Positions 17,922 to 54,362 of a stretch of 64,000 nt of DNA are shown one piece after another (the stretch's first letter is position 1; each line of letters opens with the position of its first letter). The notes under the pieces are model-generated. The model was not told where the DNA came from, searched no databases, and worked only from the letters and a program-made list of their open reading frames with translations. The translations under genes were made by a program, and so were the position numbers. Origin of the DNA: Escherichia coli O127:H6 str. E2348/69 (lineage in GTDB: Bacteria > Pseudomonadota > Gammaproteobacteria > Enterobacterales > Enterobacteriaceae); the NCBI RefSeq assembly GCF_000026545.1, contig NC_011601.1, one strand, 5' to 3'.

Positions 17922-18314
17922 GCTTATGGTTGCCCCTCCCTCGACGGTTAAGGCTTCAACTTCCCCCGTGCGCCTCTCCCAGCCGAAGGCTGGGCGGGCT
18001 GTATATCGATTTGCCTTCCTCTGTGGCGTTTATGACCCTGTTTCGCGTTCTTACCGTGAGGCTGTGGGTTAGGGTTACTCTTCTCTTTAAACGCTAAATC
18101 ACTCCTGAATCTCCACTGTTAAAGCACTTTGCGTTGATGCTTGGCGCTTCTCTTGGCTGTCGTTATTGTTTTGGCTTTGGTGTCATCAATCGTTCGATTC
18201 TTGCTACCTGTCTGAGTGATTACTATCTGGTATCATCAATTTAGGGTTTGACTAAATGCCACCACCAATGCAATGATGCTACCGTTTTGTGATACCAGAC
18301 GGGTGAGGTGAACC

Positions 18315-19559: not shown

Positions 19560-19700
19560 CTTTCAGGTCTTAGCCGTTGGTCATTGGTCTTACTGCCCGC
19601 TGTGCTACTGCCAGCTATGGCACGCCGTCACGGTCTACTGTCTGTCACCTGTCCTACTGCGTTCACTGTCTGCCGTCTGTCATCCTGTCGGATTCCATCC
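19560..19700. repeat. Pyrimidine-rich cluster of short iteron-like repeats (YTACTGYC / CTGTC) next to an AT-rich tract; candidate replication origin
   Basis: tcttactgcc, gctactgcc, tctactgtc, cctactgcg and cactgtctgcc within about 100 bp; AT-rich stretch at 19440-19560 immediately upstream. Confidence 0.3.
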
Positions 19701-20149
19701 GTTGACGTTCCGCGCTCGCTTGTTTCGGCTGCGCCGCGCTCGCTCTGCGTATCTAGCGATACTATATCACTATAGACACTTTCATAATTATATAATGATT
19801 ACAGTAACTTATGTTTTCTGTTTTAAAAGCTACTAATAAGGAGATATAGAGCATTACTTACCCGCTTTTGACCGACAAAAATCGCGTTGTTAAGTATTGC
19901 CAGCCCAGGCTCAATAAGGCTTAGCGAGGTGGTGGCTAAAAAATGAGCTAATGAAGGTATCTACTAAGGAGAAAGAATAACTCCCGAAGCGCGACAAACT
20001 CTCCGATTTTGAAAGTGACTATTAAGGCAGATAAAGACACTGACACTGTTGCTGACATGAAAACTTCTAAAAGGGCAGAGAGTCTGCCGAACCCGTACCG
20101 CTGACCCAACCTGAGCTAATACCTACCCCTATTTTCTGGAGATTTCACC

Positions 20150-21994
20150 ATGCCAACAAACCTACGCCGCCTGCTTGCGCAGGCTGCCGACGCTGACCCG
20201 CTCAATACTGCGGACGCAGATGTACAGCAAATGATCGCTGACGGGATTGTTATTCGACGTTCCAAGATATGCCCTGTAAAGCGTAAACCCGTTAAGGCGG
20301 CATACAACACAAAGACCGAAGAGTTTTATTACAATGCAGATGGCTCCGCGATGACCTTGCGGGAGTGGCGAACGCTGCACGGTGTTCAACCGAAGAAACA
20401 AAAACAGCGCTCTGACACTGGGTTGCGGCAAGTCATCCAGCCCGGCGACGCGATTCACTGCCGACGCGCTGAGATTGAGCAATGGCTTAATAAGAAGCCC
20501 GCTCGTTATGTTGACCCGCTGCCGCCAGATTTTCCCGGTGTTCGCGTAGACGATGCCGCATTGAAACCGCGCGAGCACGCCGTGCCGGAAGCGACAACCG
20601 GACAGAATGCTTTTCTCAAAGCCTGCCGCGAGTTCCTGATTTGCGATGAGAAGACCATGCGCCGTATCAGTCGGGGCATGAACCAAATGGAAGCTATGCG
20701 CAACGCAGATTTCAAACGCTACGGAGACTCAGGGGAGTTTCGTCAATTGTGGTGTGGAGAGTCGAAGCCTACCGAAGATAGATTTAATAGTTCTAATCAT
20801 CATTGTGACCCGAACGGCTTGGCTGCTTCGCCGTCTGTGCCGCCACTGAATACTGCACCGTATGAGTTCCGCCCGCTGGCTCGCTGTGACCGAAACGCAC
20901 GCGTTAGCCTGCTGCCACCTGATGGGCTGGAGTGGAGGCCGGGGCAGTTGTCTGTTGCTGATGCGATCTTTTCCCGTGGCAGTGATGTGCTTGCCGTACT
21001 GCCGACCGGGTATGGCAAAAGCGCCGCCTTCACTTATCCATTGATTTATGAGTCCCGCGCTGGCATTGGCCTGTCTGTAATCGTGGTTCCTACTAATACC
21101 CTTAAGCGTCAGATTCTCCGCCAGTTGCGGGAGGCTGGCATTCACGCTGTGGCCTTTGGCGATAAGCTACCGAGGCACCGCAACGCACAACAACTGGCGG
21201 GACTAGCAGCCGGGGCGTTCCGGGTTGCTGTTGTTTCGCCTGAACATCTGGTTCCGTCGAGTCAGGTTCTCGCGGCGCTGATGGCTTATGGCGTTGATCG
21301 TTTTATTATCGATGAGGCACACACGGTCAAAGACTGGGATTTCCGCCCAGCTTACGACGCAATGCAGCACACACTACAGAATGCTTTTCCCTCGGCTCAG
21401 CGCTGCGTGTTTACGGCTACTCTACTACGAGAAAATGAGCGCGGTTTAATGGAGGCGCTGGGATGCCGTGGCGATTACGTTACATTCCGTGCTGATGTTG
21501 CTCGCGAGAATATCCAGTTGATTCCGGTCAGGCAGTGCCGCCAGCGATACCGCGCGGCTGTTGGTCTGGTCGAGGCTCTGCCAGAGGAAGAGAAGACGCT
21601 CATTCTAGTCAATGACCTTAAGACGTTGCGGGCGTACCTGAAACTCTTCGGCGACCGGGCGCGCCCATATCACTCGAAGACGATGCACCTGAGCAACGAG
21701 GAACGCCACGCAAACGCTGAGTGGTTTGCCTCTGCGCCGGGCGCGATTCTGATTGCTACTAAAGCCTTCGGGCTGGGTGCTGATGTTCCTGATATCCGTA
21801 ACGTTGTCGTGACATACGTTCCCGATGACTTGCCTGATCTCGTTCAGATGATTGGACGAGCCGGGCGCGATGGGGAACCTGCCCGCGCTTTTCTGCTGTG
21901 GTCATCGCTGGCGCTGGATGTTGCTCCTGATGAGCTTGCTTACTTCTACCGCCCTGAAAACTGTAACTGGCAGTACATCGCTAAATACCTCTGA
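20150..21994 (+). CDS. RecQ-family superfamily-2 DNA helicase with a ~270-aa N-terminal domain of unknown function
   Basis: Helicase motifs LPTGYGKS (Walker A), IIDEAHTV (DEAH box) and GRAGRDG (RecQ-type motif VI). Confidence 0.7.
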   Translation: MPTNLRRLLAQAADADPLNTADADVQQMIADGIVIRRSKICPVKRKPVKAAYNTKTEEFYYNADGSAMTLREWRTLHGVQPKKQKQRSDTGLRQVIQPGDAIHCRRAEIEQWLNKKPARYVDPLPPDFPGVRVDDAALKPREHAVPEATTGQNAFLKACREFLICDEKTMRRISRGMNQMEAMRNADFKRYGDSGEFRQLWCGESKPTEDRFNSSNHHCDPNGLAASPSVPPLNTAPYEFRPLARCDRNARVSLLPPDGLEWRPGQLSVADAIFSRGSDVLAVLPTGYGKSAAFTYPLIYESRAGIGLSVIVVPTNTLKRQILRQLREAGIHAVAFGDKLPRHRNAQQLAGLAAGAFRVAVVSPEHLVPSSQVLAALMAYGVDRFIIDEAHTVKDWDFRPAYDAMQHTLQNAFPSAQRCVFTATLLRENERGLMEALGCRGDYVTFRADVARENIQLIPVRQCRQRYRAAVGLVEALPEEEKTLILVNDLKTLRAYLKLFGDRARPYHSKTMHLSNEERHANAEWFASAPGAILIATKAFGLGADVPDIRNVVVTYVPDDLPDLVQMIGRAGRDGEPARAFLLWSSLALDVAPDELAYFYRPENCNWQYIAKYL

Positions 21995-22031
21995 GTCGAA
22001 AGGCTCTCCCTGATTCTCTGGAGTTAATCAT

Positions 22032-22469
22032 ATGCCTGTTACCGAACATGCGCAGCGTCGTGCTGCGCGTGCGGATGCGCTCATCACCGCACAACTAGCC
22101 TTTGCCCTGAATGGGTACAACTGGGATGAACTGGCCGAACCTCATCGCAAGACCCTTAATCGTGAGGCCATCATTCGCGAGGTATCTACACCGCTGGAGC
22201 GATATTGCCTGCTGAATGATTGCGAGCCGTGGGAGTGTCTGGCCGCTGTACTGAACCGCATGAAAAGGCCGGATGGCTCGCGTCGCTGGAAAGCCGTCCG
22301 GTTGTCCGACCGGGTTTTCAATGGCCGGGTGCATCCAGTGCGCAAGACTCCTGATGAAGTTTACGCCGCCATTGCCCGCCGCTTGTTCCTGCCGAAGCCT
22401 GTGCATCAAGAAGTGATACAGCACATCCGTGCGCTTGGCTTGTTACCAGTTGGAGATAACCACCAATGA
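22032..22469 (+). CDS. Hypothetical protein
   Basis: 145-aa ORF, co-directional in a tightly packed operon. Confidence 0.4.
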   Translation: MPVTEHAQRRAARADALITAQLAFALNGYNWDELAEPHRKTLNREAIIREVSTPLERYCLLNDCEPWECLAAVLNRMKRPDGSRRWKAVRLSDRVFNGRVHPVRKTPDEVYAAIARRLFLPKPVHQEVIQHIRALGLLPVGDNHQ

Positions 22470-22675
22470 CGAAATCTGAATTTGAAAATGAAACATGGCG
22501 AATGAAGGGCTTGCTTCTTGGGGCGCTGATTCGCCGCCTTGAGGAAGATAAGGCTGGCGAGTCGCGCATGGTCGCAGCGGAGTTATCCAGTGCGGTCAAC
22601 TTCCTTAAGGCCAACGCCGTAGAAGCGCCGGACACATCATTCAACAACGTGTTCCCGGAGGATGACGAACAATGA
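22466..22675 (+). CDS. Hypothetical small protein
   Basis: 69-aa ORF with ATGA overlap with the upstream gene. Confidence 0.3.
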   Translation: MTKSEFENETWRMKGLLLGALIRRLEEDKAGESRMVAAELSSAVNFLKANAVEAPDTSFNNVFPEDDEQ

Positions 22676-22848
22676 CCCCTGAACAATTCAGACAATGGTT
22701 CGCCACGCTGCCACCGAACTATCAGAGCGCCGCACGCACCATGTACGACAACGCCCGCAAGTCGGGCATACATACCGCGTCAAGCCTTGCGCTGATTCAC
22801 ACGTTGGTTACTGACCAGATCAAATTTGATTCGGAGTTTAATTTATGA
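22672..22848 (+). CDS. Hypothetical small protein (58 aa)
   Basis: Not in the ORF track (below 60 aa); start and stop both overlap neighbours in ATGA fashion, suggesting translational coupling. Confidence 0.3.
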   Translation: MTPEQFRQWFATLPPNYQSAARTMYDNARKSGIHTASSLALIHTLVTDQIKFDSEFNL

Positions 22849-23408
22849 CTTTGAGTATTACCGATATCCAGCGCATTAACGCGCTGGCTCATAAGCACCT
22901 AAAGAACAATGAAGAGATTGCAGCGGAGACAGGTCATACCCTGACCGATATTGACGCTGTAATCCGTGGCGTCTATGTCGATGACTTGGCCGAACATTGG
23001 AAAGACGATGCTGATATTACTCTGGCGGAGTACAACGCCATCCGCAGCCGCTATAAGCCCGGCAAGTTGCACCGCGATACAGAGTTTATGATTGCCCGCG
23101 ATATGCTGATTCGCCCTGAGACTGTGCTGGCTATCGCCCATTCCCGCTTTAGCAACGTCCACACGCACCCAGTGCCGAAAGCCGTCAAAGCAAAGCCGGA
23201 GAAAGCGAAAGTAGTGCGCAAGTTAGTGCTTACTGATTTAGATGAAATCCACAAGTTAGAGCGCTTCGGTTGGCCTGCTGCGGAGATCGCCGGGAAGCTG
23301 GGCGTCCCTGTTGAGGTCGTCGCGCATGTGCAACGCTGCCTGAGAAATCGTTGGTCGTACCCGGATACTCTGGAGTCTGTTAACTCCAAATTCAGCGAGG
23401 CTGAATGA
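22845..23408 (+). CDS. Hypothetical protein with a possible C-terminal HTH
   Basis: 187-aa ORF; HTH-like segment GWPAAEIAGKLGVPVEVVAHVQRC. Confidence 0.4.
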   Translation: MTLSITDIQRINALAHKHLKNNEEIAAETGHTLTDIDAVIRGVYVDDLAEHWKDDADITLAEYNAIRSRYKPGKLHRDTEFMIARDMLIRPETVLAIAHSRFSNVHTHPVPKAVKAKPEKAKVVRKLVLTDLDEIHKLERFGWPAAEIAGKLGVPVEVVAHVQRCLRNRWSYPDTLESVNSKFSEAE

Positions 23409-23641
23409 TGGCAGAGAACGAACCGCTGCACCCCGCCGTTAACCCTGATCTCTACGTGAACCTTGACGAACAACGCGAAGGATACGCTCCGATTGAATCA
23501 CAGGGTTGGGATGTGCTGACGCAGAACCTGACCGGGAAAGGTCGAACTGACCCCAGCCAAACACTTAACCAGAATCCGAAACAACGCCCGCACGGCTCCG
23601 TTGGTGAGCGTCGTTGGCTTCGTAAACGTGGATTACTTTAA
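23405..23641 (+). CDS. Hypothetical small protein
   Basis: 78-aa ORF, overlapping start with the upstream gene. Confidence 0.3.
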   Translation: MMAENEPLHPAVNPDLYVNLDEQREGYAPIESQGWDVLTQNLTGKGRTDPSQTLNQNPKQRPHGSVGERRWLRKRGLL

Positions 23642-23653
23642 CGAGGAATTACC

Positions 23654-23893
23654 ATGAGCAAAACTATCGTATTGCTGCCGCCCCGCAAGAATACAGACTG
23701 GGCTGCACAATTAAAGCTGATTTCTGAATCGCTTGAGGTGAGTCAGGCAGACCTCGCCCACGCCTATCAGGTTGATCGTCGGGATATGGGTAAAGCGTAT
23801 CACGGTGTGCGCAAACTGCCGGAGCGTTGTGTGCCTGTTCATATGCTGTTGTTAGCGCAGGTACACGACTTTAGAGCATTATCAGGAGAATAA
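23654..23893 (+). CDS. Hypothetical small protein (possible HTH regulator)
   Basis: 79-aa ORF with an RBS-like aggaa upstream. Confidence 0.35.
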   Translation: MSKTIVLLPPRKNTDWAAQLKLISESLEVSQADLAHAYQVDRRDMGKAYHGVRKLPERCVPVHMLLLAQVHDFRALSGE

Positions 23894-23896
23894 TTT

Positions 23897-24577
23897 ATGT
23901 CTGACCAGAATGTTAATCCGTACCTTTCCGGTGCTGATGCTGCATCGCAGCAATCGCCATACATGGCTGCACCTGTTGGCGCTGACAATGGCGCATCCCG
24001 CTTTAGCTCTGTGCCTGCTGATGCTGATTTCCTCCGTACCCAGCCCGTTAACGGTAATGATGGCGGCCAATGGAATAATGGCAGTATCGCGAATCAGCAG
24101 GATCAGAACGCTGACAGCGCCGGGGCGCAGGTGGGCGATACTATCTCCCTGATGGATGGAACAGCTATTGAGTACACCGCCGAGCTGCAAGGATTGATGG
24201 GGCAGTTTCACCAGTCTGTCGAAAGCCAGCTAGGGCAGGGGACAGTTGACGCTATGTTGCAGTACGCTGGCACGCTCGACGCCGGGACGCAATCGACCCT
24301 TGAACGGATGGTTATGTCTGGCGACCCTGCGCAGATGCAGCGGGCGGTTCAGTATCTGCAAGAGCGTATGGCTGGCGGTTCCATTACCGGTTACGTCCCG
24401 AACGGCCAGACTGCCGCGCAACCTGTCGGAATGTCACATGCTGAGTTTATAGCAGCGTATGACCAGCTTTCGCAGTGGGCGCAGCAATCAGGGTATGGCC
24501 CCGGCCATCGCCAGTACGACGAACAATACCGTGCTCTGGTTGCGCAGCGCTCCGCTGGCAAACGTGCTGGTCGCTAA
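23897..24577 (+). CDS. Hypothetical acidic Q/A/G-rich protein (scaffolding-protein-like composition)
   Basis: 226-aa low-complexity protein immediately upstream of the capsid-like gene; compositional resemblance only. Confidence 0.35.
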   Translation: MSDQNVNPYLSGADAASQQSPYMAAPVGADNGASRFSSVPADADFLRTQPVNGNDGGQWNNGSIANQQDQNADSAGAQVGDTISLMDGTAIEYTAELQGLMGQFHQSVESQLGQGTVDAMLQYAGTLDAGTQSTLERMVMSGDPAQMQRAVQYLQERMAGGSITGYVPNGQTAAQPVGMSHAEFIAAYDQLSQWAQQSGYGPGHRQYDEQYRALVAQRSAGKRAGR

Positions 24578-24716
24578 CGCCCAACGGTGGAATGCGCCCT
24601 GCAAGACTGAGTGCGCACCAACCCGGTACTACCACACCAATCTAAGCGCATGAGTCCCCGCAAGCCGCATTCTGCGCGGCATCTGAAAGCCTGTTTTTAA
24701 TTAACCGAGGTTCGTA

Positions 24717-25130
24717 ATGAGTACCTGTAATTTCCATGCCGTGGTGCGTGTCGCTGACGTGCGCCCGGATTTCGCCTTGCCGCTGGGTAGATGCGACCAC
24801 ATTTACCCTGAGCGTGTGCAGCACGTTTTCAATCCAGACGAAGCGGTTTATATCGTTGCCCGGTCTGCCACATCCGGCACCCGCACATCTGGCGTTAGCC
24901 GTGGGCTTTCCCCTGTGCTGCCGCCGAAGATGGCCGAGCGGATGCGCGAACGTGAACGGCACGAGAAAAACCGAGTCAGACCCCGCAAGGTGATCACTGA
25001 GGCGATACGCGCTGACATTATCGATCGCTCTGCAAAAGGTCAGAAGAATCGTTACATTGCAAGCAAGGTTGGTGTGTCTGAAACCTCTGTGCGGAAGGTG
25101 TTGAACATGGCGCGTATGAGTGCGCACTAG
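24717..25130 (+). CDS. Hypothetical DNA-binding protein (C-terminal HTH)
   Basis: 137-aa ORF; HTH-like NRYIASKVGVSETSVRKVLN. Confidence 0.4.
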   Translation: MSTCNFHAVVRVADVRPDFALPLGRCDHIYPERVQHVFNPDEAVYIVARSATSGTRTSGVSRGLSPVLPPKMAERMRERERHEKNRVRPRKVITEAIRADIIDRSAKGQKNRYIASKVGVSETSVRKVLNMARMSAH

Positions 25131-25349
25131 TGCAAGGTAATACGTTCACCTTACTTCACGCGCACTAACCCCTGAGAACCGTGCCAGCTCTGGCCTCAAA
25201 ACGCCCATTTCGGGGCACCTCATTCCTCTTAATCGATACCGTTCTGAATCCTGCCTCGGCGGGAGGATTACGCACGCCCGCGCCATGACGATGGCCGGGC
25301 CTATCTCGTCAGTGAATCCGCTGGCACAACCTACGTAGGAGTTTTACAT

Positions 25350-26345
25350 ATGGCCGATAACATTTACTCGCCTGACCAGTTCCGCCCACATTATGGCGGG
25401 GTGGAATCTGACAATGATATTCACATCGAGGCTTATGACCGGGATGTCCAGACCCGTTTAGAGTCCAAATCCGTATTTCTGGCCGAGGGGCTGTCTACAT
25501 ACAGGCCGCTGAAAGCCAGCAACCAATATCGTGTTGATCGCCTGAGTGGTGATCTGGAGGTGAAGGGCAGAACCGCAGGGCAATCGCTGGAGCCTACCGC
25601 TGTTAAGTCGGATAAGCTGATTATCTCTGTGGATACGCTGAGTTATATCCGCATCCCGATTGACTATCAGGATGACTGGACAGCACCCACCTTTCGCTCA
25701 GAGCTGAGCCGCAATATCGGTACTGCTCACGCTAAATTCTACGACGAAGCGCACACCATCCAGCTAATCAAAGCGACTGACTTTGTACCGCCGCCGACGT
25801 TGCAACCAACGTTTAACCCGCTGACGGATAATGTTGTCTCGCTCGACCTGACAGCGGGGAGCGAAGAGGACGCCGCAAACGAATTGTCTCACGCCGTAAA
25901 AGCGGCTGCTAATCGCTTTCTCACTGAGAAAGATATTCCGGTGGCCGAGCTGGTACTGCTTATCGACCCGGCTTGGTTCAGCATCCTGATGGAACATAAG
26001 AAGCTGATGAACATCCGTTACAGCCGGGATAGTGGCAACGATTACGCATGGCGTCGAGTTGGCTATGTCGCTTGGGTACGAGTCATTGAGCTGAACAGTT
26101 ACCCGCAGGGAGCCATTACCGCGCATGAACTGGGCGCTGATTATAATGTGACCGCAGGGGAAGCGCTGACACGGGCGACGCTGTTCCGGCCTGCGTCTGT
26201 ACTTGTGACAGTCGAAGCGCAGAGCGTCATCAATCGCCAGTGGGATGAGGAACGCGAAATGACAATGGTGATGGACTCATATCGCCTGTTCAATGTTGGG
26301 CTGCGCCGCCCGGACTGCGTTATCAATTTCCGACAAGCTGCATAA
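25350..26345 (+). CDS. Hypothetical protein, possibly a phage-type structural (capsid-like) protein
   Basis: 331-aa ORF with strong RBS (aggag); size and position after a scaffold-like gene suggest a structural role; no motif-level proof. Confidence 0.35.
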   Translation: MADNIYSPDQFRPHYGGVESDNDIHIEAYDRDVQTRLESKSVFLAEGLSTYRPLKASNQYRVDRLSGDLEVKGRTAGQSLEPTAVKSDKLIISVDTLSYIRIPIDYQDDWTAPTFRSELSRNIGTAHAKFYDEAHTIQLIKATDFVPPPTLQPTFNPLTDNVVSLDLTAGSEEDAANELSHAVKAAANRFLTEKDIPVAELVLLIDPAWFSILMEHKKLMNIRYSRDSGNDYAWRRVGYVAWVRVIELNSYPQGAITAHELGADYNVTAGEALTRATLFRPASVLVTVEAQSVINRQWDEEREMTMVMDSYRLFNVGLRRPDCVINFRQAA

Positions 26346-26361
26346 CTGGAGGGGCTGAGTC

Positions 26362-26871
26362 ATGGTTAATGATGCTTACGCCCCTGAGCTGTTGCGATCC
26401 CTTTTCCTGTATGACCCGGTGACAGGTCGCCTGCACCATAAAGCTAGCCGATGCCGGGTTACGGCTGGCTCCTATGCTGACTCCACCCGGCGAGCTGATG
26501 GCTATCGTCAAGTTGCCCTGCGACTGGATGGCAAGCAGTACCAGCTAAAAGCCCATCGCGTAGCGTGGATTCTTGCGCATGGTGCTATTCCCCACGGTAT
26601 GCAGATCGATCACATCAACGGTACCCGTGACGATAACCGCTTATGCAATCTGCGATTGGTTACGCAGCGGGAAAACGACCAGAACCGACGCAAGGCAAGG
26701 GGGTATAGCTGGAATAAGGGCTGTAGCAAATGGGAGGCTTACATACGCGTTGGTGGTGTACTCCGTCACCTTGGCTTATTCACATCCGAAGCGGCAGCTC
26801 GTGCTGTGTACCTGAAAGCTAAAGCCAGATACCACCCCTCAACGCCTGACGATTTATTGCAGGCTGCCTAA
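26362..26871 (+). CDS. HNH endonuclease (phage-type, with AP2-like region)
   Basis: 169-aa ORF; HNH core IDHINGTRDDNRLCNLRLVTQRENDQN. Confidence 0.7.
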   Translation: MVNDAYAPELLRSLFLYDPVTGRLHHKASRCRVTAGSYADSTRRADGYRQVALRLDGKQYQLKAHRVAWILAHGAIPHGMQIDHINGTRDDNRLCNLRLVTQRENDQNRRKARGYSWNKGCSKWEAYIRVGGVLRHLGLFTSEAAARAVYLKAKARYHPSTPDDLLQAA

Positions 26872-26889
26872 CCCTCGGAGGTTCCATTA

Positions 26890-27315
26890 ATGGCTGATGA
26901 AAAGCCGATTAGGTCGCTGGCAGGTGATGACCCACGCCGCCAGCAGTACGCCGAACTGTTGGCGCAGGCTAGCCGCATGACTATTCCCCGGCTGCATCCG
27001 GGCGATGCTAACAGTGTGATGAGTCAGCTTGCAACGATGCTTGGCGCACCTGTCCCGATAGTCGGTGCTATGACTGAGCACGCCGCTGCATGGCGTGCCT
27101 GTCTGCTTGAGCAAGGACTTGGCGAGCTTCTGGATGGCTTGAGTAAACAGGTGCTGACCATCTTCTTTCTGCTCTGCTGGAGAGACAGCGCCTTGCGATT
27201 GGCTGGTAAGCAAAAGAAACGGCTTACAGCCGCCAGCGAGGGTTTGACCATTGAGCAATACCGGGCAATGCACCCGGCTTACAGAGAGGATAAAGAACAT
27301 GATAACCACGATTAA
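26890..27315 (+). CDS. Hypothetical protein
   Basis: 141-aa ORF in the operon. Confidence 0.35.
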   Translation: MADEKPIRSLAGDDPRRQQYAELLAQASRMTIPRLHPGDANSVMSQLATMLGAPVPIVGAMTEHAAAWRACLLEQGLGELLDGLSKQVLTIFFLLCWRDSALRLAGKQKKRLTAASEGLTIEQYRAMHPAYREDKEHDNHD

Positions 27316-27598
27316 ATTAAGGTGGCGGTACATCGAGACGCCGCCAATGACTGGCGCACTCGCTGACCTGAAACAGTGGGTAATGAATGCCGTAGAGCCT
27401 GAGCTTGAGGCTGAATTTCGTAAGCTGCTGGGGCAGATGCGTCGCAATGGTATCAGTGATGGGCGCGTAAATGCGGTGGCTGATGAGCTTTATGCTCTGG
27501 TATGCCAACGCCAGCGCGAAGAATACGAAGCCTGCAAGCGGGCTGCCTCTGACAATGGAGACTTTGAATCATGGTTACACGGACAGACCAGCTACTAA
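27299..27598 (+). CDS. Hypothetical small protein (start chosen at the ATG with GAGAGGA RBS)
   Basis: Track ORF 27251..27598; internal ATG at 27299 has a good Shine-Dalgarno sequence. Confidence 0.35.
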   Translation: MITTIKLRWRYIETPPMTGALADLKQWVMNAVEPELEAEFRKLLGQMRRNGISDGRVNAVADELYALVCQRQREEYEACKRAASDNGDFESWLHGQTSY

Positions 27599-27996
27599 GA
27601 AAAGCTATGAGGGGCTATCTGGAACACCTTGGCAACATGCCGCTGGCGGAACGGATTACAAATGCTGCTGTATTCGAAGATGTGTATCGCTTTTTGTTGA
27701 ATGGTTCCGGGCGGCTGGAGCTGCGCCGCGCTGACGTGGCTGCCGTCCGTGTCTTCCTTTGGAACTATCAATACCGCCGCTGTGCTGTGACAGGTAAGCC
27801 GCTGCGCCTTGCGTCTGCCGTTCTGGATCACTGCCACCGAACCGGGCGCGTGCGTGCTGTGGTGCATCGTTCTGCTAACGCTGCTGAGGGAGGCCGCTAC
27901 GTTGGGCGGACGTGTGGTGTTAGCGTTACGAATCTAAGGGCTATGATTGGCAGCTATCGCAAGCAATACACTGGTATTGGCATGTTATATCCATAA
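27571..27996 (+). CDS. Endonuclease VII-like (DHCH-type) nuclease
   Basis: 141-aa ORF with CAVTGKPL...LDHCHRTGRVR motif resembling the recombination endonuclease VII family signature. Confidence 0.5.
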   Translation: MVTRTDQLLRKAMRGYLEHLGNMPLAERITNAAVFEDVYRFLLNGSGRLELRRADVAAVRVFLWNYQYRRCAVTGKPLRLASAVLDHCHRTGRVRAVVHRSANAAEGGRYVGRTCGVSVTNLRAMIGSYRKQYTGIGMLYP

Positions 27997-28037
27997 CTGC
28001 GGGGTAATAAACCCCGCCGAAATAGTAGCGTAGCCAC

Positions 28038-28940
28038 TCAAACAGGAATGTTGTAGTAATGACAAATTGCATTAGTTAGTAGAGCTGGTGCAGCAGACGC
28101 TGCAATATTTAGCGTCCCCGCATATGCTTTACCAATCATATTTACAACCCACTTCCCAAGGCTATCACTGAAATTGTCCGGGGTAGTTGGGGCGGGTGAT
28201 TCTTGTATAGCTTGATGAAGGCTCTTAATATCTTCATCATTAGCGCCCCAATCCTTGAGCTGCTTTTCAAGCGAGTTGAAGTCTCCAGCGTTGACAGTAT
28301 TATTTTGTGAAATGTCCCCGTTACCAGAGCCAATAACGCCAGCATTGTTTACGTTGCCATGAATGTTGGTCACGTTATGGACAGTCATTGGCGCTACCTC
28401 TTTTTCTCTTAATGAAAACTGTAACCCTTCGCCTAAAATACCCTTTGACTCTAAGTCTAAAGACCAGTCGAGGATCTTATTCCTAACGGTAGTAATTACA
28501 TGTTCTAGTACACCAGCGCTTATAACCCATACCATCTCAGTCTTTTGTCCGATACTTTGAGCTAATGTATCAGCCATCCAATCCGGGAGAGGTAAAAAAG
28601 GGTTTTCTCCTTTATTGCTCATCTTTTTTATAGATGATATTGATTCTGTAATGTGAAACGTTGATACCATTGCATTTAATTCCGCGTCGTTGAAGTTGAC
28701 CACAAGCGGAACCCAGCTCTGATGTTGGGGACTATATGCTTTTAACTGCGATTGACCTTTCCTGTATTCAGGAACCGTATCAAAGCTGGGATAGCCATTT
28801 AATTCGAGCTGTATCCACTCGGTCAAATCGCTGAGGCCGAGCTTCACTGCAATCATTTTGGCCTTCATGAGTACAGATAAAATGTCGGAGTCGGGATCGC
28901 ACGCTAGTGCTTGAAGTTCAAGAACTGGTGAGTTAGCCAT
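28038..28940 (-). CDS. Hypothetical protein adjacent to the integrase (candidate abortive-infection/defense cargo)
   Basis: 300-aa ORF on the integrase strand, convergent with the main operon; N-terminal region loosely resembles Abi-type proteins, from memory only. Confidence 0.4.
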   Translation of the reverse strand: MANSPVLELQALACDPDSDILSVLMKAKMIAVKLGLSDLTEWIQLELNGYPSFDTVPEYRKGQSQLKAYSPQHQSWVPLVVNFNDAELNAMVSTFHITESISSIKKMSNKGENPFLPLPDWMADTLAQSIGQKTEMVWVISAGVLEHVITTVRNKILDWSLDLESKGILGEGLQFSLREKEVAPMTVHNVTNIHGNVNNAGVIGSGNGDISQNNTVNAGDFNSLEKQLKDWGANDEDIKSLHQAIQESPAPTTPDNFSDSLGKWVVNMIGKAYAGTLNIAASAAPALLTNAICHYYNIPV

Positions 28941-29027
28941 ATCAAGACCTTAGTATTGTTTTGATAAGGTATCTTACCCGCATCGAACCATGCAGTCTAA
29001 GGTTCGCAGGCCAAACTCACCCATGAG

Positions 29028-30239
29028 TTAGATGTTTATTCCTTCATGCTGGATGAGTTCGACATACTTACCGATCTCTATAGGGGAAGCTGCATTTTTC
29101 GAGTAAGTTTTGAAGCTCTCTGTACTCCCGCGCTCATGACCGACGAGCAGGGCAATACGATCTTCTGGCACTTGAGCACGGTCGAGCTGTTGCACAAAAG
29201 CATGGCGGAGTGAGTGAAACACTTTTCTCTCTGCGGCAGGCTCGCCAAGAGCTTTACGCTTTGCTCGCGTGAATTGCTGCGTATGCCACGTTGAGCGCTT
29301 CCCATCGGCCCGGTCTGTTATTGATGCGTGATAGAACAGAAAACCGCTATGTGTGGTCTTGAGCAATGACTTCACGAGAGGGATTATCTTGCTGTGTACA
29401 GGGACGATTCGCGCCGCGCTCTTAGTCTTCCCCTCGGTGATCTCAAAGCACAATATACCCTCGATAGTTTTAATACTGCTTTCACGTAGCGTACATATCT
29501 CATTGATCCGCATACCGCTGTATGCACCAATAGCCGTTACCGCCTTCATCTCGTCATCAAGCAAGGCATAGACCTTTGCCAGCTCTCCCGGTGCGAAGAC
29601 TTCATAGCTGACCTTGCTGCTTTTTGCTTCGAGCGCATGACCGCGCCAAGGATTGTCCTGTGGTGCATCGTGATAGCGATTGCGTGCCAGATCCCATATC
29701 TGCGCCAGTGCGCTTATATAGTTTTGGATAGTTTGGGGCGCTCGCTCAGTTTTGAGCTTATCTAACCAGCCTGTAACTATGGTTCGGTTAATATCCCGCA
29801 ACTGAACATCTTTCTTTTTCAAGTGGGTTAACAGCACCTCTACGGCTTTGTTGGTCTTGGATAACGTGGTTAGCTTTCGCTTCTCGCTGTATTGAAGCAG
29901 GTACAAATCACGCATTTTTAGCAAGGAAGGGCAAGCCTGAATCGATGCACCAAACGATGCGGGGGCTTCCTTGGCGTACACACTGACACGGCGTAGCTCA
30001 TCAATGATTTGGTCTACAGATGAGCCGCCTTGTGGCTTTAGCAGATTCCGTAAGCGAGTCCATTCCAGAGCAATAGCATCTCGAAACAATCGCGCTTGGC
30101 GTATGTCTCGTGTTCCTGTGCTTTTCATAAAGTAGCGCTTCCCTTGGAACAGGTGGCGCATATAGCTGGGAATAGCTATCCGCACGAGGTAATTCCCGCA
30201 GGGATCTAAAACTAGATAACGATCTCTCTTGAAACTCAT
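29028..30239 (-). CDS. Tyrosine-type site-specific integrase
   Basis: 403-aa ORF with C-terminal catalytic motifs (HSLRHAF, LLVGHERG, downstream Tyr); adjacent to the attR repeat. Confidence 0.9.
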   Translation of the reverse strand: MSFKRDRYLVLDPCGNYLVRIAIPSYMRHLFQGKRYFMKSTGTRDIRQARLFRDAIALEWTRLRNLLKPQGGSSVDQIIDELRRVSVYAKEAPASFGASIQACPSLLKMRDLYLLQYSEKRKLTTLSKTNKAVEVLLTHLKKKDVQLRDINRTIVTGWLDKLKTERAPQTIQNYISALAQIWDLARNRYHDAPQDNPWRGHALEAKSSKVSYEVFAPGELAKVYALLDDEMKAVTAIGAYSGMRINEICTLRESSIKTIEGILCFEITEGKTKSAARIVPVHSKIIPLVKSLLKTTHSGFLFYHASITDRADGKRSTWHTQQFTRAKRKALGEPAAERKVFHSLRHAFVQQLDRAQVPEDRIALLVGHERGSTESFKTYSKNAASPIEIGKYVELIQHEGINI

Positions 30240-30372
30240 ACAAACCCCGGTTATGTTGTCGGGGCTTTTTCATGGCTAAACAGTCTGTGAAATGTGCCGG
30301 GGTCATGAGCTTTAGTCTAGCTAGTTCAACAAGTTAACGATGATTGTTGAAGCAAGCTAAGTCGCTATAACC

Positions 30373-30403
30373 CGTGCCGGTTCGAGTCCGGCCTTCGGCA
30401 CCA
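30373..30403 (+). repeat. attR core: 31-bp direct repeat of the leuX 3' end
   Basis: Exact copy of 15312-15342. Confidence 0.85.
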
Positions 30404-43237: not shown

Positions 43238-44218
43238 TCACCTTTCGCGCCAAAACTGCAAAATTGCTTCTACAAACCTGTCAGAAATAATCCCCCGACG
43301 GGCTGCCGCGCTGAAATGACTGCTTCGCAGTGCCGTCGTCCAGTTCTCCGGTGACCGGTACGCTGAACCGTAATATCCCGTGCTTAAATCGTCCGGGTCT
43401 TCATCAGGCGCGTTCGTCAGTCCTCTTTCACCTTGTTGCTGGAAGTCGACGAAAATAATATTGGCTAAAACATTATTTTGATAATTGCCATAAATAGCTT
43501 CATACGCATGAGGGAAATTTTCTTTCCAGTACCAGGTGGTATCGCCGCAAAACCACGGTGCGTCAGTAATATTATTAAGCTGAGAATGGTATTGTTTTAG
43601 ATCCCTACGAAAGGCTTCAACCATATGATTAAAGTGTTGAGGATGTGACGCGTAGTCACTGGTCATTAAGTCAAATTCGCCTTGCATCCAGCATACGCCG
43701 AGGAATTTGTTCTGCGGATTTTTTGCCAGTGCGGCTCGCGTTCTGCTCACTAAATCCTGGTATAGCGGAGTATCCGTTCCCCAACGACAAGCATCATGGC
43801 TGGCTCCGTGCCGTTCTGAATATGTCCCTTCGCTGCCCGCGGTAAAAGCCGATCCGCCACGGCAACACGGAACGATGAGAACCCCTGCATTATCAGGAAT
43901 AAAGGGCAGTAATTTCCGTGCTATATGCAGTGCCTGGCCAACGGTGCCGTACTGTGTTTGATGATTCGTTGCCAGAGGATGGTGATAACCCTGCATATCC
44001 TGAACATCGTGTGGGCAGTGAGTCAGTGGAATAATGTCGTTAAAGTGACATGACGGGCCTCCGGGATGCGTATGCGCAAATCTCGCTAATTGTTTAATTC
44101 TGGGATGAGGCGCATCTTCCTTGTCCGGTAATGGTAGTCCTTCGCCATACGCCATGGCATTAGATTGACCAGCAACGGTAAGAACATAGTAATAATCGGG
44201 CGATATTATCGCGTTCAT
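43238..44218 (-). CDS. nanS: N-acetyl-9-O-acetylneuraminate esterase
   Basis: 326-aa ORF; SGNH-hydrolase-like N-terminus (VLTVAGQSNAMAYG); position downstream of nanM and nanC matches the E. coli nanCMS operon. Confidence 0.8.
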   Translation of the reverse strand: MNAIISPDYYYVLTVAGQSNAMAYGEGLPLPDKEDAPHPRIKQLARFAHTHPGGPSCHFNDIIPLTHCPHDVQDMQGYHHPLATNHQTQYGTVGQALHIARKLLPFIPDNAGVLIVPCCRGGSAFTAGSEGTYSERHGASHDACRWGTDTPLYQDLVSRTRAALAKNPQNKFLGVCWMQGEFDLMTSDYASHPQHFNHMVEAFRRDLKQYHSQLNNITDAPWFCGDTTWYWKENFPHAYEAIYGNYQNNVLANIIFVDFQQQGERGLTNAPDEDPDDLSTGYYGSAYRSPENWTTALRSSHFSAAARRGIISDRFVEAILQFWRER

Positions 44219-47588: not shown

Positions 47589-48191
47589 ATGAAGAATAAG
47601 GCTGATAACAAAAAAAGGAACTTCCTGACCCATAGTGAAATCGAATCACTCCTTAAAGCAGCAAATACCGGGCCTCATGCTGCACGTAATTATTGTCTGA
47701 CATTACTTTGTTTTATTCATGGTTTCCGGGCGAGTGAAATTTGCCGATTGAGGATTTCGGATATTGATCTTAAGGCAAAGTGTATATATATCCATCGATT
47801 AAAAAAAGGCTTTTCAACAACGCACCCGCTATTGAACAAAGAAATTCAGGCTTTAAAAAACTGGTTGAGTATCCGTACTTCTTATCCGCATGCTGAGAGC
47901 GAGTGGGTATTCTTATCACGTAAGGGGAATCCACTTTCTCGGCAACAGTTTTACCATATTATCTCGACTTCCGGTGGTAATGCCGGGTTGTCACTGGAGA
48001 TTCATCCGCACATGTTACGCCATTCGTGTGGTTTTGCTTTGGCGAATATGGGAATAGATACGCGACTTATCCAGGATTATCTTGGACATCGCAATATTCG
48101 TCATACTGTCTGGTATACCGCCAGCAATGCAGGGCGTTTTTACGGCATCTGGGATAGAGCCAGAGGACGACAGCGTCACGCTGTTTTATAG
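47589..48191 (+). CDS. fimB: Type 1 fimbriae recombinase FimB (tyrosine recombinase)
   Basis: 200-aa ORF beginning MKNKADNKKRNFLTHSEIESLL; RHS...HxxR...Y recombinase motifs. Confidence 0.95.
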   Translation: MKNKADNKKRNFLTHSEIESLLKAANTGPHAARNYCLTLLCFIHGFRASEICRLRISDIDLKAKCIYIHRLKKGFSTTHPLLNKEIQALKNWLSIRTSYPHAESEWVFLSRKGNPLSRQQFYHIISTSGGNAGLSLEIHPHMLRHSCGFALANMGIDTRLIQDYLGHRNIRHTVWYTASNAGRFYGIWDRARGRQRHAVL

Positions 48192-48668: not shown

Positions 48669-49265
48669 GTGAGTAAACGTCGTTATCTTACCGGTAAAGA
48701 AGTTCAGGCCATGATGCAGGCGGTGTGTTACGGGGCAACGGGAGCCAGAGATTATTGTCTTATTCTGTTGGCATATCGGCATGGGATGCGTATTAGTGAA
48801 CTGCTTGATCTGCATTATCAGGATCTTGACCTTAATGAAGGTCGAATAAATATTCGCCGACTGAAGAACGGATTTTCTACCGTTCACCCGTTACGTTTTG
48901 ATGAGCGTGAAGCTGTGGAACGCTGGACCCAGGAACGTGCTAACTGGAAAGGTGCTGACCGGACCGACGCTATATTTATTTCTCGCCGCGGGAGTCGGCT
49001 TTCTCGCCAGCAGGCCTATCGCATTATTCGCGATGCCGGTATTGAAGCTGGAACCGTAACGCAGACTCATCCTCATATGTTAAGGCATGCTTGTGGTTAT
49101 GAACTGGCGGAACGTGGTGCAGATACCCGTTTAATTCAGGATTATCTCGGGCATCGAAATATTCGCCATACTGTGCGTTATACCGCCAGTAATGCTGCTC
49201 GTTTTGCCGGATTATGGGAAAGAAATAATCTCATAAACGAAAAATTAAAAAGAGAAGAAGCTTGA
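48669..49265 (+). CDS. fimE: Type 1 fimbriae recombinase FimE (tyrosine recombinase)
   Basis: 198-aa ORF beginning VSKRRYLTGKEVQAMMQAV; paralog of FimB directly upstream of the fim switch. Confidence 0.95.
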   Translation: MSKRRYLTGKEVQAMMQAVCYGATGARDYCLILLAYRHGMRISELLDLHYQDLDLNEGRINIRRLKNGFSTVHPLRFDEREAVERWTQERANWKGADRTDAIFISRRGSRLSRQQAYRIIRDAGIEAGTVTQTHPHMLRHACGYELAERGADTRLIQDYLGHRNIRHTVRYTASNAARFAGLWERNNLINEKLKREEA

Positions 49266-49312
49266 TTTAACTTATTGATAATAAAGTTAAAAAACAAATA
49301 AATACAAGACAA

Positions 49313-49626
49313 TTGGGGCCAAACTGTCTATATCATAAATAAGTTACGTATTTTTTCTCAAGCATAAAAATATTAAAAAACGACAAAAAGCATCTAACTG
49401 TTTTATATGTAAATTATTTCTCTTGTAAATTAATTTCACATCACCTCCGCTATATGTAAAGCTAACGTTTCTGTAGCTCGACGCAACTTCCTCATTCTTC
49501 TCTCCAAAAACCACCTCATGCAATATAAAAAACTGCAAATAAAGATAACTATAGAACATTAAGCCAACAAATAAACTGAAAAAGTTTGTGCGCGATGCTT
49601 TCCTCTATGAGTCAAAATGGCCCCAA
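49313..49626. promoter_or_regulatory. fimS invertible element (314 bp) flanked by 9-bp inverted repeats TTGGGGCCA (49313-49321) and TGGCCCCAA (49618-49626)
   Basis: Exact 9-bp inverted repeats 314 bp apart, between fimE and fimA. Confidence 0.9.
49332..49361 (-). promoter_or_regulatory. Sigma-70-like promoter inside fimS (TTGAGA-17/18 bp-TATGAT) reading toward fimE, which would make the switch phase-OFF as sequenced
   Basis: Best -35/-10 match inside the switch lies on the minus strand at the fimE-proximal end; only a weak match is found reading toward fimA. Confidence 0.5.
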
Positions 49627-49745
49627 ATGTTTCATCTTTTGGGGGAAAACTGTGCAGTGTTGGCAGTCAAACTCGTTGACAAAACAAAGTGTACAGAACG
49701 ACTGCCCATGTCGATTTAGAAATAGTTTTTTTAAAGGAAAGCAGC

Positions 49746-50294
49746 ATGAAAATTAAAACTCTGGCAATCGTTGTTCTGTCGGCTCTGTCCCTCAGTTCCA
49801 CAGCGGCTCTGGCCGCTGCCACGACGGTTAATGGTGGGACCGTTCACTTTAAAGGGGAAGTTGTTAACGCCGCTTGCGCAGTTGATGCAGGCTCTGTTGA
49901 TCAAACCGTTCAGTTAGGACAGGTTCGTACCGCATCGCTGGCGCAGGAAGGAGCAACCAGTTCTGCTGTCGGTTTTAACATTCAGCTGAATGATTGCGAT
50001 ACCAATGTTGCATCTAAAGCAGCTGTTGCCTTTTTAGGTACGGCGATTGATGCGGCTCATACCAACGTTCTGGCTCTGCAGAGTTCGGCTGCGGGTAGCG
50101 CAACAAATGTTGGTGTGCAGATTCTGGACAGAACAGGTGTTGCGCTGACGCTGGACGGTGCGACATTTAGTTCAGAAACAACCCTGAATAACGGTACTAA
50201 CACCATTCCGTTCCAGGCGCGTTATTTTGCAACCGGTGCTGCAACCCCGGGTGCTGCTAATGCGGATGCGACCTTCAAGGTTCAGTATCAATAA
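49746..50294 (+). CDS. fimA: Type 1 fimbrial major subunit
   Basis: 182-aa product from the ATG at 49746 ([23 protein letters not shown] signal peptide); C-terminal ...FKVQYQ. Confidence 0.95.
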
Positions 50295-50358
50295 CCTACC
50301 CAGGTTCAGGGACGTCATTACGGGCAGGGATGCCCACCCTTGTGCGATAAAAATAACG

Positions 50359-50898
50359 ATGAAAAGGAAGAGATTATTTCTGTTAGCGTCGTTGCTGCCA
50401 ATGTTTGCTCTGGCCGGAAATAAATGGAATACCACGCTGCCCGGCGGAAATATGCAATTTCAGGGCGTCATTATTGCGGAAGCTTGCCGGATTGAAGCCG
50501 GTGACAAACAAATGACGGTCAATATGGGGCAAATCAGCAGTAACCGGTTTCATGCGGTAGGGGAAGATAGCGCACCGGTGCCTTTTGTTATTCATTTACG
50601 GGAATGTAGCACGGTGGTGAGTGAACGTGTGGGGGTGGCGTTTCACGGTGTCGCGGATGGTAAAAATCCGGATGTGCTTTCCGTGGGAGAGGGGCCAGGG
50701 ATAGCCACCAATATTGGCGTAGCGTTGTTTGATGAAGAAGGAAACCTCGTACCGATTAACCGTCCTCCAGTAAACTGGAAACGGCTTTATTCAGGCTCTA
50801 CTTCGCTACATTTCATCGCCAAATATCGTGCTACCGGGCGTCGGGTTACTGGCGGCATCGCCAATGCCCAGGCCTGGTTCTCTTTAACCTATCAGTAA
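50359..50898 (+). CDS. fimI: Type 1 fimbrial protein FimI
   Basis: 179-aa product from the ATG at 50359 ([19 protein letters not shown]); fimbrial subunit fold; the track ORF extends further upstream. Confidence 0.85.
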
Positions 50899-50934: not shown

Positions 50935-51660
50935 GTGAGTAATAAAAACGTCAATGTAAGGAAATCGCAGGAAATAACATTCTGCTTGCTGGCAGGTATC
51001 CTGATGTTCATGGCAATGGTGGTTGCCGGACGCGCTGAAGCGGGAGTGGCCTTAGGTGCGACTCGCGTAATTTATCCGGCAGGGCAAAAACAAGTGCAAC
51101 TTGCCGTGACAAATAATGATGAAAATAGCACCTATTTGATTCAATCATGGGTAGAAAATGCCGATGGTGTAAAGGATGGCCGTTTTATCGTGACGCCACC
51201 TCTGTTTGCGATGAAGGGAAAAAAAGAGAATACCTTGCGTATTCTTGATGCAACAAATAACCAATTGCCACAGGATCGGGAAAGTTTATTCTGGATGAAT
51301 GTTAAAGCGATTCCGTCAATGGATAAATCAAAATTGACTGAGAATACGCTACAGCTCGCAATTATCAGCCGCATTAAACTGTACTATCGTCCGGCTAAAT
51401 TAGCGTTGCCACCCGATCAGGCCGCAGAAAAATTAAGATTTCGTCGTAGCGCGAATTCTCTGACTCTGATTAACCCGACACCCTATTACCTGACGGTAAC
51501 AGAGTTGAATGCCGGAACCCAGGTTCTTGAAAATGCATTGGTGCCTCCAATGGGCGAAAGCACGGTTAAATTGCCTTCTGATGCAGGAAGCAATATTACT
51601 TACCGAACAATAAATGATTATGGCGCACTTACCCCCAAAATGACGGGCGTAATGGAATAA
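50935..51660 (+). CDS. fimC: Periplasmic fimbrial chaperone FimC
   Basis: 241-aa ORF with GTG start; PapD-like chaperone. Confidence 0.95.
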   Translation: MSNKNVNVRKSQEITFCLLAGILMFMAMVVAGRAEAGVALGATRVIYPAGQKQVQLAVTNNDENSTYLIQSWVENADGVKDGRFIVTPPLFAMKGKKENTLRILDATNNQLPQDRESLFWMNVKAIPSMDKSKLTENTLQLAIISRIKLYYRPAKLALPPDQAAEKLRFRRSANSLTLINPTPYYLTVTELNAGTQVLENALVPPMGESTVKLPSDAGSNITYRTINDYGALTPKMTGVME

Positions 51661-51725: not shown

Positions 51726-54362
51726 ATGTCATATCTGAATTTAAGAATTTACCAGCGAAACACACAATGCTTGCATATTCGTAAGCATCGTTTGGCTGTT
51801 TTTTTTGTCCGGCTCTTTGTCGCCTGTGCTTTTGCCGCACAGGCACCTTTGTCATCTGCCGAACTCTATTTTAATCCGCGCTTTTTAGCGGATGATCCCC
51901 AGGCTGTGGCCGATTTATCGCGTTTTGAAAATGGGCAAGAATTGCCGCCAGGGACGTATCGTGTCGATATCTATTTGAATAATGGTTATATGGCAACGCG
52001 TGATGTCACATTTAATACGGGCGACAGTGAACAAGGGATTGTTCCCTGCCTGACACGCGCGCAACTCGCCAGTATGGGGCTGAATACAGCTTCTGTCTCC
52101 GGTATGAATCTGCTGGCGGATGATGCCTGCGTGCCATTAACCTCAATGATCCATGACGCTACTGCGCATTTAGATGTTGGTCAGCAGCGACTCAACCTGA
52201 CGATCCCTCAGGCATTTATGAGTAATCGCGCGCGTGGATATATTCCTCCTGAGTTGTGGGATCCCGGTATTAATGCCGGCTTGCTCAATTATAATTTCAG
52301 CGGAAATAGTGTACAGAATCGGATTGGTAGTAACAGCCATTATGCATATTTAAACCTACAGAGTGGGCTAAATATTGGTGCGTGGCGTTTACGCGACAAT
52401 ACCACCTGGAGTTATAACAGTAGCGACAGTTCATCAGGTAGCAAAAATAAATGGCAGCATATCAATACCTGGCTTGAGCGAGACATAATTCCGTTACGTT
52501 CCCGGCTGACGCTGGGTGATGGTTATACCCAGGGCGATATTTTCGATGGTATTAACTTTCGCGGCGCACAATTGGCCTCAGATGACAATATGTTACCCGA
52601 TAGCCAAAGAGGATTTGCCCCGGTGATCCACGGTATTGCTCGTGGTACTGCACAGGTCACTATTAAACAAAATGGGTATGACATTTATAATAGTACGGTG
52701 CCACCGGGGCCTTTTACCATCAACGATATCTATGCCGCAGGTAATAGTGGTGACTTGCAGGTAACGATTAAAGAGGCTGACGGCAGTACGCAGATTTTTA
52801 CCGTACCCTATTCGTCAGTCCCGCTCTTGCAACGTGAAGGGCATACACGTTATTCCATTACGGCAGGAGAATACCGTAGTGGAAATGCGCAACAGGAAAA
52901 ACCCCGCTTTTTCCAGAGTACATTACTCCACGGCCTTCCGGCTGGCTGGACAATATATGGTGGAGCGCAACTGGCGGATCGTTATCGTGCTTTTAATTTC
53001 GGTATCGGGAAAAACATGGGGGCACTGGGCGCTCTGTCTGTGGATATGACGCAGGCTAATTCCACACTTCCCGATGACAGTCAGCATGACGGACAATCGG
53101 TGCGTTTTCTTTATAACAAATCGCTCAATGAGTCAGGCACGAATATTCAGTTAGTGGGTTACCGTTATTCGACCAGTGGGTATTTTAATTTCGCTGATAC
53201 AACATACAGTCGAATGAATGGCTACAACATCGAAACACAGGATGGTGTTATTCAGGTTAAGCCGAAATTCACCGACTATTACAATCTCGCTTATAACAAA
53301 CGCGGGAAATTACAACTCACCGTTACTCAGCAACTCGGGCGCACATCAACACTGTATTTGAGTGGTAGCCATCAAACTTATTGGGGAACGAGTAATGTCG
53401 ATGAGCAATTCCAGGCAGGATTAAATACTGCGTTCGAAGATATTAACTGGACGCTCAGCTATAGCCTGACGAAAAACGCCTGGCAAAAAGGACGGGATCA
53501 GATGTTAGCTCTTAACGTCAATATTCCTTTCAGCCACTGGCTGCGTTCTGACAGTAAATCTCAGTGGCGACATGCCAGTGCCAGCTACAGCATGTCACAC
53601 GATCTCAACGGTCGGATGACCAATCTGGCCGGTGTATACGGTACGTTGCTGGAAGACAACAACCTCAGCTATAGCGTGCAAACCGGTTATGCCGGGGGAG
53701 GCGATGGAAATAGCGGAAGTACAGGCTACGCCACGCTGAATTATCGCGGTGGTTACGGCAATGCCAATATCGGTTACAGCCATAGCGATGATATTAAGCA
53801 GCTCTATTACGGAGTCAGCGGTGGGGTACTGGCTCATGCCAATGGCGTAACGCTGGGGCAGCCGTTAAACGATACGGTGGTGCTTGTTAAAGCGCCTGGC
53901 GCAAAAGATGCAAAAGTCGAAAACCAGACAGGAGTGCGTACCGACTGGCGGGGTTATGCCGTGCTGCCATATGCCACTGAATATCGGGAAAACAGAGTGG
54001 CGCTGGATACCAATACCCTGGCTGATAACGTCGATTTAGATAATGCGGTCGCTAACGTTGTTCCCACCCGTGGAGCGATCGTGCGAGCAGAGTTTAAAGC
54101 GCGCGTTGGGATAAAACTGCTCATGACGCTAACCCACAATAATAAGCCGCTGCCGTTTGGGGCGATGGTGACATCAGAGAGTAGCCAGAGTAGCGGCATT
54201 GTTGCGGATAATGGTCAGGTTTACCTCAGCGGAATGCCTTTAGCGGGAAAAGTTCAGGTGAAATGGGGAGAAGAGGAAAATGCTCACTGTGTCGCCAATT
54301 ATCAACTGCCACCAGAGAGTCAGCAGCAGTTATTAACCCAGCTATCAGCTGAATGTCGTTAA
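51726..54362 (+). CDS. fimD: Outer-membrane fimbrial usher FimD
   Basis: 878-aa ORF; usher-family length and composition. Confidence 0.95.
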   Translation: MSYLNLRIYQRNTQCLHIRKHRLAVFFVRLFVACAFAAQAPLSSAELYFNPRFLADDPQAVADLSRFENGQELPPGTYRVDIYLNNGYMATRDVTFNTGDSEQGIVPCLTRAQLASMGLNTASVSGMNLLADDACVPLTSMIHDATAHLDVGQQRLNLTIPQAFMSNRARGYIPPELWDPGINAGLLNYNFSGNSVQNRIGSNSHYAYLNLQSGLNIGAWRLRDNTTWSYNSSDSSSGSKNKWQHINTWLERDIIPLRSRLTLGDGYTQGDIFDGINFRGAQLASDDNMLPDSQRGFAPVIHGIARGTAQVTIKQNGYDIYNSTVPPGPFTINDIYAAGNSGDLQVTIKEADGSTQIFTVPYSSVPLLQREGHTRYSITAGEYRSGNAQQEKPRFFQSTLLHGLPAGWTIYGGAQLADRYRAFNFGIGKNMGALGALSVDMTQANSTLPDDSQHDGQSVRFLYNKSLNESGTNIQLVGYRYSTSGYFNFADTTYSRMNGYNIETQDGVIQVKPKFTDYYNLAYNKRGKLQLTVTQQLGRTSTLYLSGSHQTYWGTSNVDEQFQAGLNTAFEDINWTLSYSLTKNAWQKGRDQMLALNVNIPFSHWLRSDSKSQWRHASASYSMSHDLNGRMTNLAGVYGTLLEDNNLSYSVQTGYAGGGDGNSGSTGYATLNYRGGYGNANIGYSHSDDIKQLYYGVSGGVLAHANGVTLGQPLNDTVVLVKAPGAKDAKVENQTGVRTDWRGYAVLPYATEYRENRVALDTNTLADNVDLDNAVANVVPTRGAIVRAEFKARVGIKLLMTLTHNNKPLPFGAMVTSESSQSSGIVADNGQVYLSGMPLAGKVQVKWGEEENAHCVANYQLPPESQQQLLTQLSAECR

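Follow-up and report, generated by a model that had tools for sequence, protein, structure and literature searches.

In which orientation is the fim switch recorded in this part of the Escherichia coli O127:H6 str. E2348/69 genome, and does that orientation say anything about the strain that carries it? The window (the whole 64,000-nucleotide stretch analysed, from contig NC_011601.1) holds fimS, the invertible element of the type 1 fimbrial operon, and the explanation that best accounts for all of the evidence is that fimS is recorded here in phase-OFF orientation, with a probability of roughly 0.96. The state itself is already known: promoter inversion at fimS is textbook material, and OFF has been published for E2348/69. 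It is also an ordinary one: OFF is recorded in roughly 95% of the finished genomes of E. coli, and is the published state of this strain.

The features on which the argument depends, together with neighboring genes, are collected in Table 1. Neither a 9-nt repeat nor a single pair of promoter hexamers beats chance in an AT-rich stretch (other 9-nt inverted repeats are also present within the same 551 bp as the left and right repeats, IRL and IRR), so that homology is needed to accept fimS as real; it is provided by 302/314 identical positions in K-12 MG1655 in the same orientation (174/338 as the reverse complement) and 314/314 in E2348/69. The remaining marks of fimS are present as well: a length of 314 bp with perfect repeats, a location between fimE and fimA upstream of fimAICDFGH, adjacent tyrosine recombinases with the R-H-R-Y tetrad, an internal sigma-70-like site, and the occurrence of both orientations among genomes. 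The initial reading of the bare sequence had proposed an intact 314-bp element with both 9-bp inverted repeats, and its coordinates proved exact.

Table 1. Coordinates (in the window) of the switch, its predicted regulatory sites, neighboring fim genes and the nearby defence genes.
Feature	Position	Strand	Remarks
fimS invertible element	49313..49626	.	314 bp, phase-OFF orientation; between intact fimE and fimA
IRL, fimE-proximal 9-bp inverted repeat TTGGGGCCA, crossover site	49313..49321	.	canonical sequence in PMC9820224
IRR, fimA-proximal 9-bp inverted repeat TGGCCCCAA	49618..49626	.	exact reverse complement of IRL
BstUI site (CGCG), standard orientation assay	49591..49594	.	single in fimS; 27 bp from IRR
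IHF consensus match TATCAATAAGTTA, putative site	49268..49280	-	pattern match, just outside IRL
Predicted PfimA: -35 TTGAGA 49361-49356, 18-nt spacer, -10 TATGAT 49337-49332	49332..49361	-	consensus scan
fimB, tyrosine recombinase, inverts fimS both ways	47589..48191	+	200-aa ORF; annotated FimB in E2348/69
fimE, tyrosine recombinase, ON-to-OFF inversion	48669..49265	+	198-aa ORF; annotated FimE
fimA, major fimbrial subunit, first of fimAICDFGH	49746..50294	+	182-aa ORF; annotated FimA
fimI	50359-50898	+	ORF and E2348/69 annotation
fimC	50935-51660	+	ORF and E2348/69 annotation
fimD	51726-54362	+	ORF and E2348/69 annotation
Type I restriction-modification hsdR, hsdS, hsdM	30628-36645	-	defence cluster
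McrB and McrC family genes	38147-41508		defence cluster
Phosphorothioated-DNA-binding restriction endonuclease	41571-42443	-	defence cluster
HNH endonuclease	42685-43230		defence cluster

Beyond the 9-bp repeats, the inverted symmetry continues imperfectly to 22 nt with 77% complementarity (49300-49321 and 49618-49639); recombinase half-sites have been placed in the flanks of the repeats (PMC9096935). The element begins 47 bp after the fimE stop codon, and 119 bp separate IRR from the fimA ATG. As recorded, the junction sequence is CAATTGGGGCCAAACTGTCTAT, the OFF form; the ON junction sequence is CAATTGGGGCCATTTTGACTCA. A search of 49200-49760 with the IHF pattern WATCAANNNNTTR gave one match only, at 49268-49280, and the IHF-1 site has been described as adjoining IRL (Dorman-lab paper). 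Published accounts of the element also include Lrp sites and an internal IHF-2 site (Dorman-lab paper, PMC2647292). No Rfam family covers fimS. A 71-aa minus-strand ORF within the element (49344-49559) was set aside as mechanical, the regulatory DNA here being AT-rich.

Gene names were transferred from E2348/69 annotation by adding 46099 to the locus coordinate, one E2348/69 record coinciding base for base with the window. Compared with K-12, FimB carries a single substitution (I86V), FimE another (A198V), and FimA two; the catalytic tetrads, with residue numbers as given in PMC9820224, are present in both recombinases (R47/H141/R144/Y176 in FimB and R41/H136/R139/Y171 in FimE). In the K-12 RefSeq record a small RNA, FimR2, is annotated between fimA and fimI (K-12 locus 3175-3209, corresponding by position to about 50305-50340 in the window); it is absent from the annotation of the E2348/69 record.

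Where, then, does the fimA promoter point? A consensus scan of 49200-49800 found a single sigma-70-like site, on the minus strand, with 10 of 12 consensus matches, bearing out the sequence-only reading, which had described one such promoter beside the fimE-proximal repeat and reading away from fimA; of the two spacer lengths it had allowed (17 or 18 bp), 18 nt is the one that holds. A distance of 10 nt separates the end of the -10 hexamer from IRL, and the predicted promoter points towards fimE. One site is not above expectation (shuffled sequences contain 2.0 +/- 1.4), and we take TTGAGA-18-TATGAT to be PfimA from its position within fimS and from the description of that promoter in the literature (PMC2647292). 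Within the scanned interval there is no other sigma-70-like site, and none between IRR and fimA, so that in this orientation no predicted promoter faces fimA. Nor did the same scan of 49200-49800 turn up an intrinsic terminator, a result consistent with, but no proof of, a Rho-dependent terminator.

By definition, the switch is ON when PfimA is directed towards fimA and OFF when it is disconnected from it (PMC2647292; Dorman-lab paper). The predicted PfimA in the window points away from fimA, which lies on the plus strand, and the standard orientation assay leads to the same assignment when carried out in silico. The OL4 and OL20 primers (sequences from PMC5293775) have perfect matches in the window, the one at 49054 and the other at 49736-49761, and their 708-bp amplicon is cut by BstUI at 49591 into fragments of 539 and 169 bp; with fimS inverted in silico, the fragments are 293 and 415 bp. 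In the published assay a 726-bp product is cut into 539 and 187 bp when the switch is OFF, and into 433 and 293 bp when it is ON. The OL4-side fragments (539 and 293 bp) are thus reproduced exactly, and their partners fall 18 bp below the published sizes (169 rather than 187 bp for the second OFF fragment). This shortfall comes from the amplicon, 708 bp here against 726 bp in the published assay; it lies wholly on the fimA-primer side and leaves the diagnostic 539- and 293-bp fragments unaffected.

Published work on the strain points the same way. In wild-type E2348/69 the switch was OFF by orientation-specific PCR, with no detectable type 1 pili, and the genomic sequence upstream of fimA was described as the OFF form (PMC9096935); in the BstUI assay the wild type came out mainly OFF, and the ON form fell below detection (PMC5293775). 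The primers of a further study (PMC5979011), whose test maps to 48770-49486 in the window, give in silico products of 717 bp here, 718 bp in K-12 and 709 bp in the inverted strain MP1, sizes that fit OFF. That study is internally inconsistent: its stated sizes (710 bp for ON, 718 bp for OFF) fit the sequences, but its ON primer string primes the reference (OFF) orientation. This test is not counted as evidence here, because the wrong primer string is attached to ON.

Comparison with other genomes places this orientation in context. The 25 kb from 39001 to 64000 align in one piece, at 100.0% identity, with three independent assemblies of E2348/69 and with no others (the next best genome reaches 98.9%), and all three record fimS as OFF. 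The fimS described for this strain in the literature (PMC9096935, PMC5293775) is accordingly the same in every respect, with 314/314 positions identical in the element, 25,000/25,000 around it, the same OFF state and no differences. The K-12 element shares with it the length of 314 bp, the inverted repeats, the position between fimE and fimA, both promoter hexamers and the orientation recorded in MG1655, but differs by 12 substitutions, none of which falls in the inverted repeats or the hexamers. In strain MP1, the flanks align directly and fimS matches only as its reverse complement (313/314). The alignment suggested by the sequence-only reading thus finds the window collinear with an OFF reference, K-12 MG1655, and opposite in orientation to MP1.

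How common is each state among finished genomes? The 801 bp around the switch, which are 100% identical to E2348/69, have matches in 4,723 of 5,426 complete E. coli genomes. This region was compared with those genomes both as sequenced and in a synthetic ON version, built by reverse-complementing 49313-49626 within it, and a genome was scored when at least 80% of the query was covered collinearly, a threshold that separates the two states because the opposite orientation covers only both flanks, or 61% of the query, on one strand. Collinear with the window as sequenced (OFF) were 4,459 genomes, 94.7% of the 4,710 that could be scored; the inverted version was collinear, flanks included, with the other 251 (5.3%). 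An ON reference matching the recorded orientation base for base, which would have contradicted the initial reading, did not emerge from this comparison of 4,459 with 251 genomes. fimS naturally occurs in both orientations, then, and OFF is what genome records show by default; the UTI89 reference genome, too, is stated to be OFF (PMC6458436). The phase-OFF assignment is therefore supported by the direction of the predicted promoter, by the in silico BstUI digest, by PCR data from the strain itself and by comparison with reference genomes.

One reservation concerns what a recorded orientation can mean. Since fimS inverts at measurable frequency (PMC6458436, PMC2647292), cultures are mixtures, and it could be argued that the assembler simply picked one of two orientations, leaving the recorded one with little biological meaning; the 5.3% of scorable complete genomes that record the opposite orientation could be read in this way. 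We regard this as unlikely for the present strain, in which three independent assemblies agree on OFF and ON was below detection in the wild type (PMC5293775). Because assemblers follow the majority of reads, the recorded orientation reflects the dominant state. It reflects only that: the assembly shows the majority orientation, and a minority ON subpopulation is not visible in the consensus. The sequence-only reading had spoken of the “sequenced molecule” as representing OFF, provided that the promoter is that of fimA; its assignment of the phase stands, with the one qualification that the assembly gives the majority orientation of a population rather than the state of a single molecule.

If phase OFF is the dominant state, is the extreme bias of E2348/69 towards it partly encoded in cis? 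Candidates would be the 12 substitutions relative to K-12, such as T49329, which sits between the -10 hexamer and IRL in the inner recombinase half-site region, or an antisense transcript, which PfimA in the OFF orientation might send over the 47-bp spacer and into fimE at its 3' end. In the literature searched, nothing relevant to such antisense action of PfimA on fimE came up. A contribution in cis seems very improbable, as an essentially identical fimS stands in the ON orientation in MP1, and the OFF bias of E2348/69 has been attributed to Fis and PerC acting in trans (PMC9096935, PMC5293775).

A different explanation would have the switch genetically locked OFF by a defect in cis or in a recombinase, as in EHEC O157:H7 or in fimB-disrupted lineages. 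In EHEC O157:H7, the fimS lock is a 16-bp deletion. EHEC resembles the present case in its OFF orientation and non-fimbriate phenotype, but its switch is locked OFF by regulatory mutations (PMC6458436), whereas the element here has its full 314 bp with nothing deleted. A lock might be suggested by the repeated description of the E2348/69 switch as “locked in the OFF orientation” (PMC9096935), and by the 12 substitutions, one of which, at 49329, lies close to both the -10 hexamer (3 nt) and IRL (8 nt). To judge from its parts, however, the switch is not broken: fimS is full length, both repeats are perfect, and FimB and FimE are full length with intact catalytic residues. MP1, with a 313/314 match to this fimS and an identical FimE (WP_000044708.1), records the opposite orientation, and both orientations have been seen in E2348/69 itself, the fis mutant being a mixture of ON and OFF (PMC9096935) and the perC mutant showing ON bands (PMC5293775). 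A genetic lock is hard to credit in the face of these observations. The near-identical element inverted in MP1 and the mixed states of the fis and perC mutants indicate instead that the OFF bias is imposed in trans and is reversible; “locked” in PMC9096935 therefore denotes a strong trans-imposed bias rather than a cis defect of the EHEC type.

It is barely conceivable that the window in fact records phase ON, with the true fimA promoter outside fimS or at its other end and TTGAGA-18-TATGAT a chance occurrence: the promoter scan alone is not significant and the primer string named ON in PMC5979011 would prime in the orientation of the window, but the digest, the experimental state and described sequence of the strain (OFF and non-fimbriate; PMC9096935, PMC5293775), the lack of any other promoter-like site between IRR and fimA, and the product sizes of PMC5979011 all contradict it.

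The phase-OFF reading allows a mechanism to be outlined. Our own observations supply its anatomy and orientation, the intactness of its parts and the natural occurrence of the element both ways round; for the chemistry of recombination, the promoter's identity, the terminator and the phenotype it draws on the literature. FimB and FimE would cut and rejoin the DNA within the two 9-bp inverted repeats, flipping the 314-bp segment; cleavage and religation within these repeats have been described (PMC2647292; Dorman-lab paper), in a synapse shaped by IHF and Lrp (Dorman-lab paper). FimB inverts the element in both directions, and FimE strongly prefers ON-to-OFF and dominates FimB (PMC9096935, PMC2647292), for which reason most wild-type cells are OFF. 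FimE would thus make OFF the majority state in culture, and this would be why the assembly shows it, with the bias in E2348/69 strengthened further by Fis and PerC.

In the OFF orientation, the predicted PfimA beside IRL would fire towards fimE, and fimAICDFGH would be left promoterless and the cell non-fimbriate as a result. If PfimA is active, its transcripts would run over IRL in the direction of the 3' end of fimE. A Rho-dependent terminator in fimS acts on fimE mRNA only in the OFF state (PMC2647292, PMC12360218; reviews): this orientation would place it downstream of fimE, giving a shorter, destabilized transcript. The state recorded in the window would then be one in which fimAICDFGH is silent and fimE transcripts end inside fimS.

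Other switches of this design, in which a site-specific recombinase flips a short promoter-bearing segment between inverted repeats, are hyxS/FimX and ipuS/IpuA-IpuB of UPEC and hin of Salmonella (PMC6458436). These differ in their loci, repeats and target genes, and the element here is fimS itself rather than a paralogous switch.

What does it matter that the switch is recorded as OFF? fimS and its inverted repeats are unannotated in three RefSeq records (MG1655, E2348/69 and MP1), and the promoterless state of fimA is therefore not visible from the record. The practical use is in annotation and transcriptome work, in which read mappers will flag ON cells as carrying an inversion. The proportions of OFF and ON among the 4,710 scorable complete genomes provide a modest but useful baseline. 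Beyond correct annotation, the recorded orientation matters little.

Other parts of the window have features of their own. A tRNA-Leu(CAA) gene, presumably leuX, lies at 15258-15342. A direct repeat of the 31 nt at its 3' end (15312-15342) is found at 30373-30403, immediately past the gene for a site-specific integrase (29028-30239, minus strand). The repeats outline an integrative element of about 15 kb at the tRNA-Leu gene (15258-30403), whose cargo includes a serine recombinase (18315-18884), a DEAD/DEAH helicase, HNH and endonuclease genes and many hypotheticals. Between this element and nanM/nanC is a cluster of defence genes (30628-43319; GC content 0.43-0.45), which, besides those listed in Table 1, includes a DUF4942 gene. 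At the junction of the cluster with nanM, a sialate O-acetylesterase gene (43652-44218, minus strand) is annotated as an incomplete pseudogene without its C-terminus. In the earlier part of the window, positions 9090-9284 (plus strand) give a full-length match to the Rfam family RF02850 (Yersinia sRNA 276, antisense), with 172.6 bits where the gathering score is 100; the match is antisense within pepA (8331-9842, minus strand).
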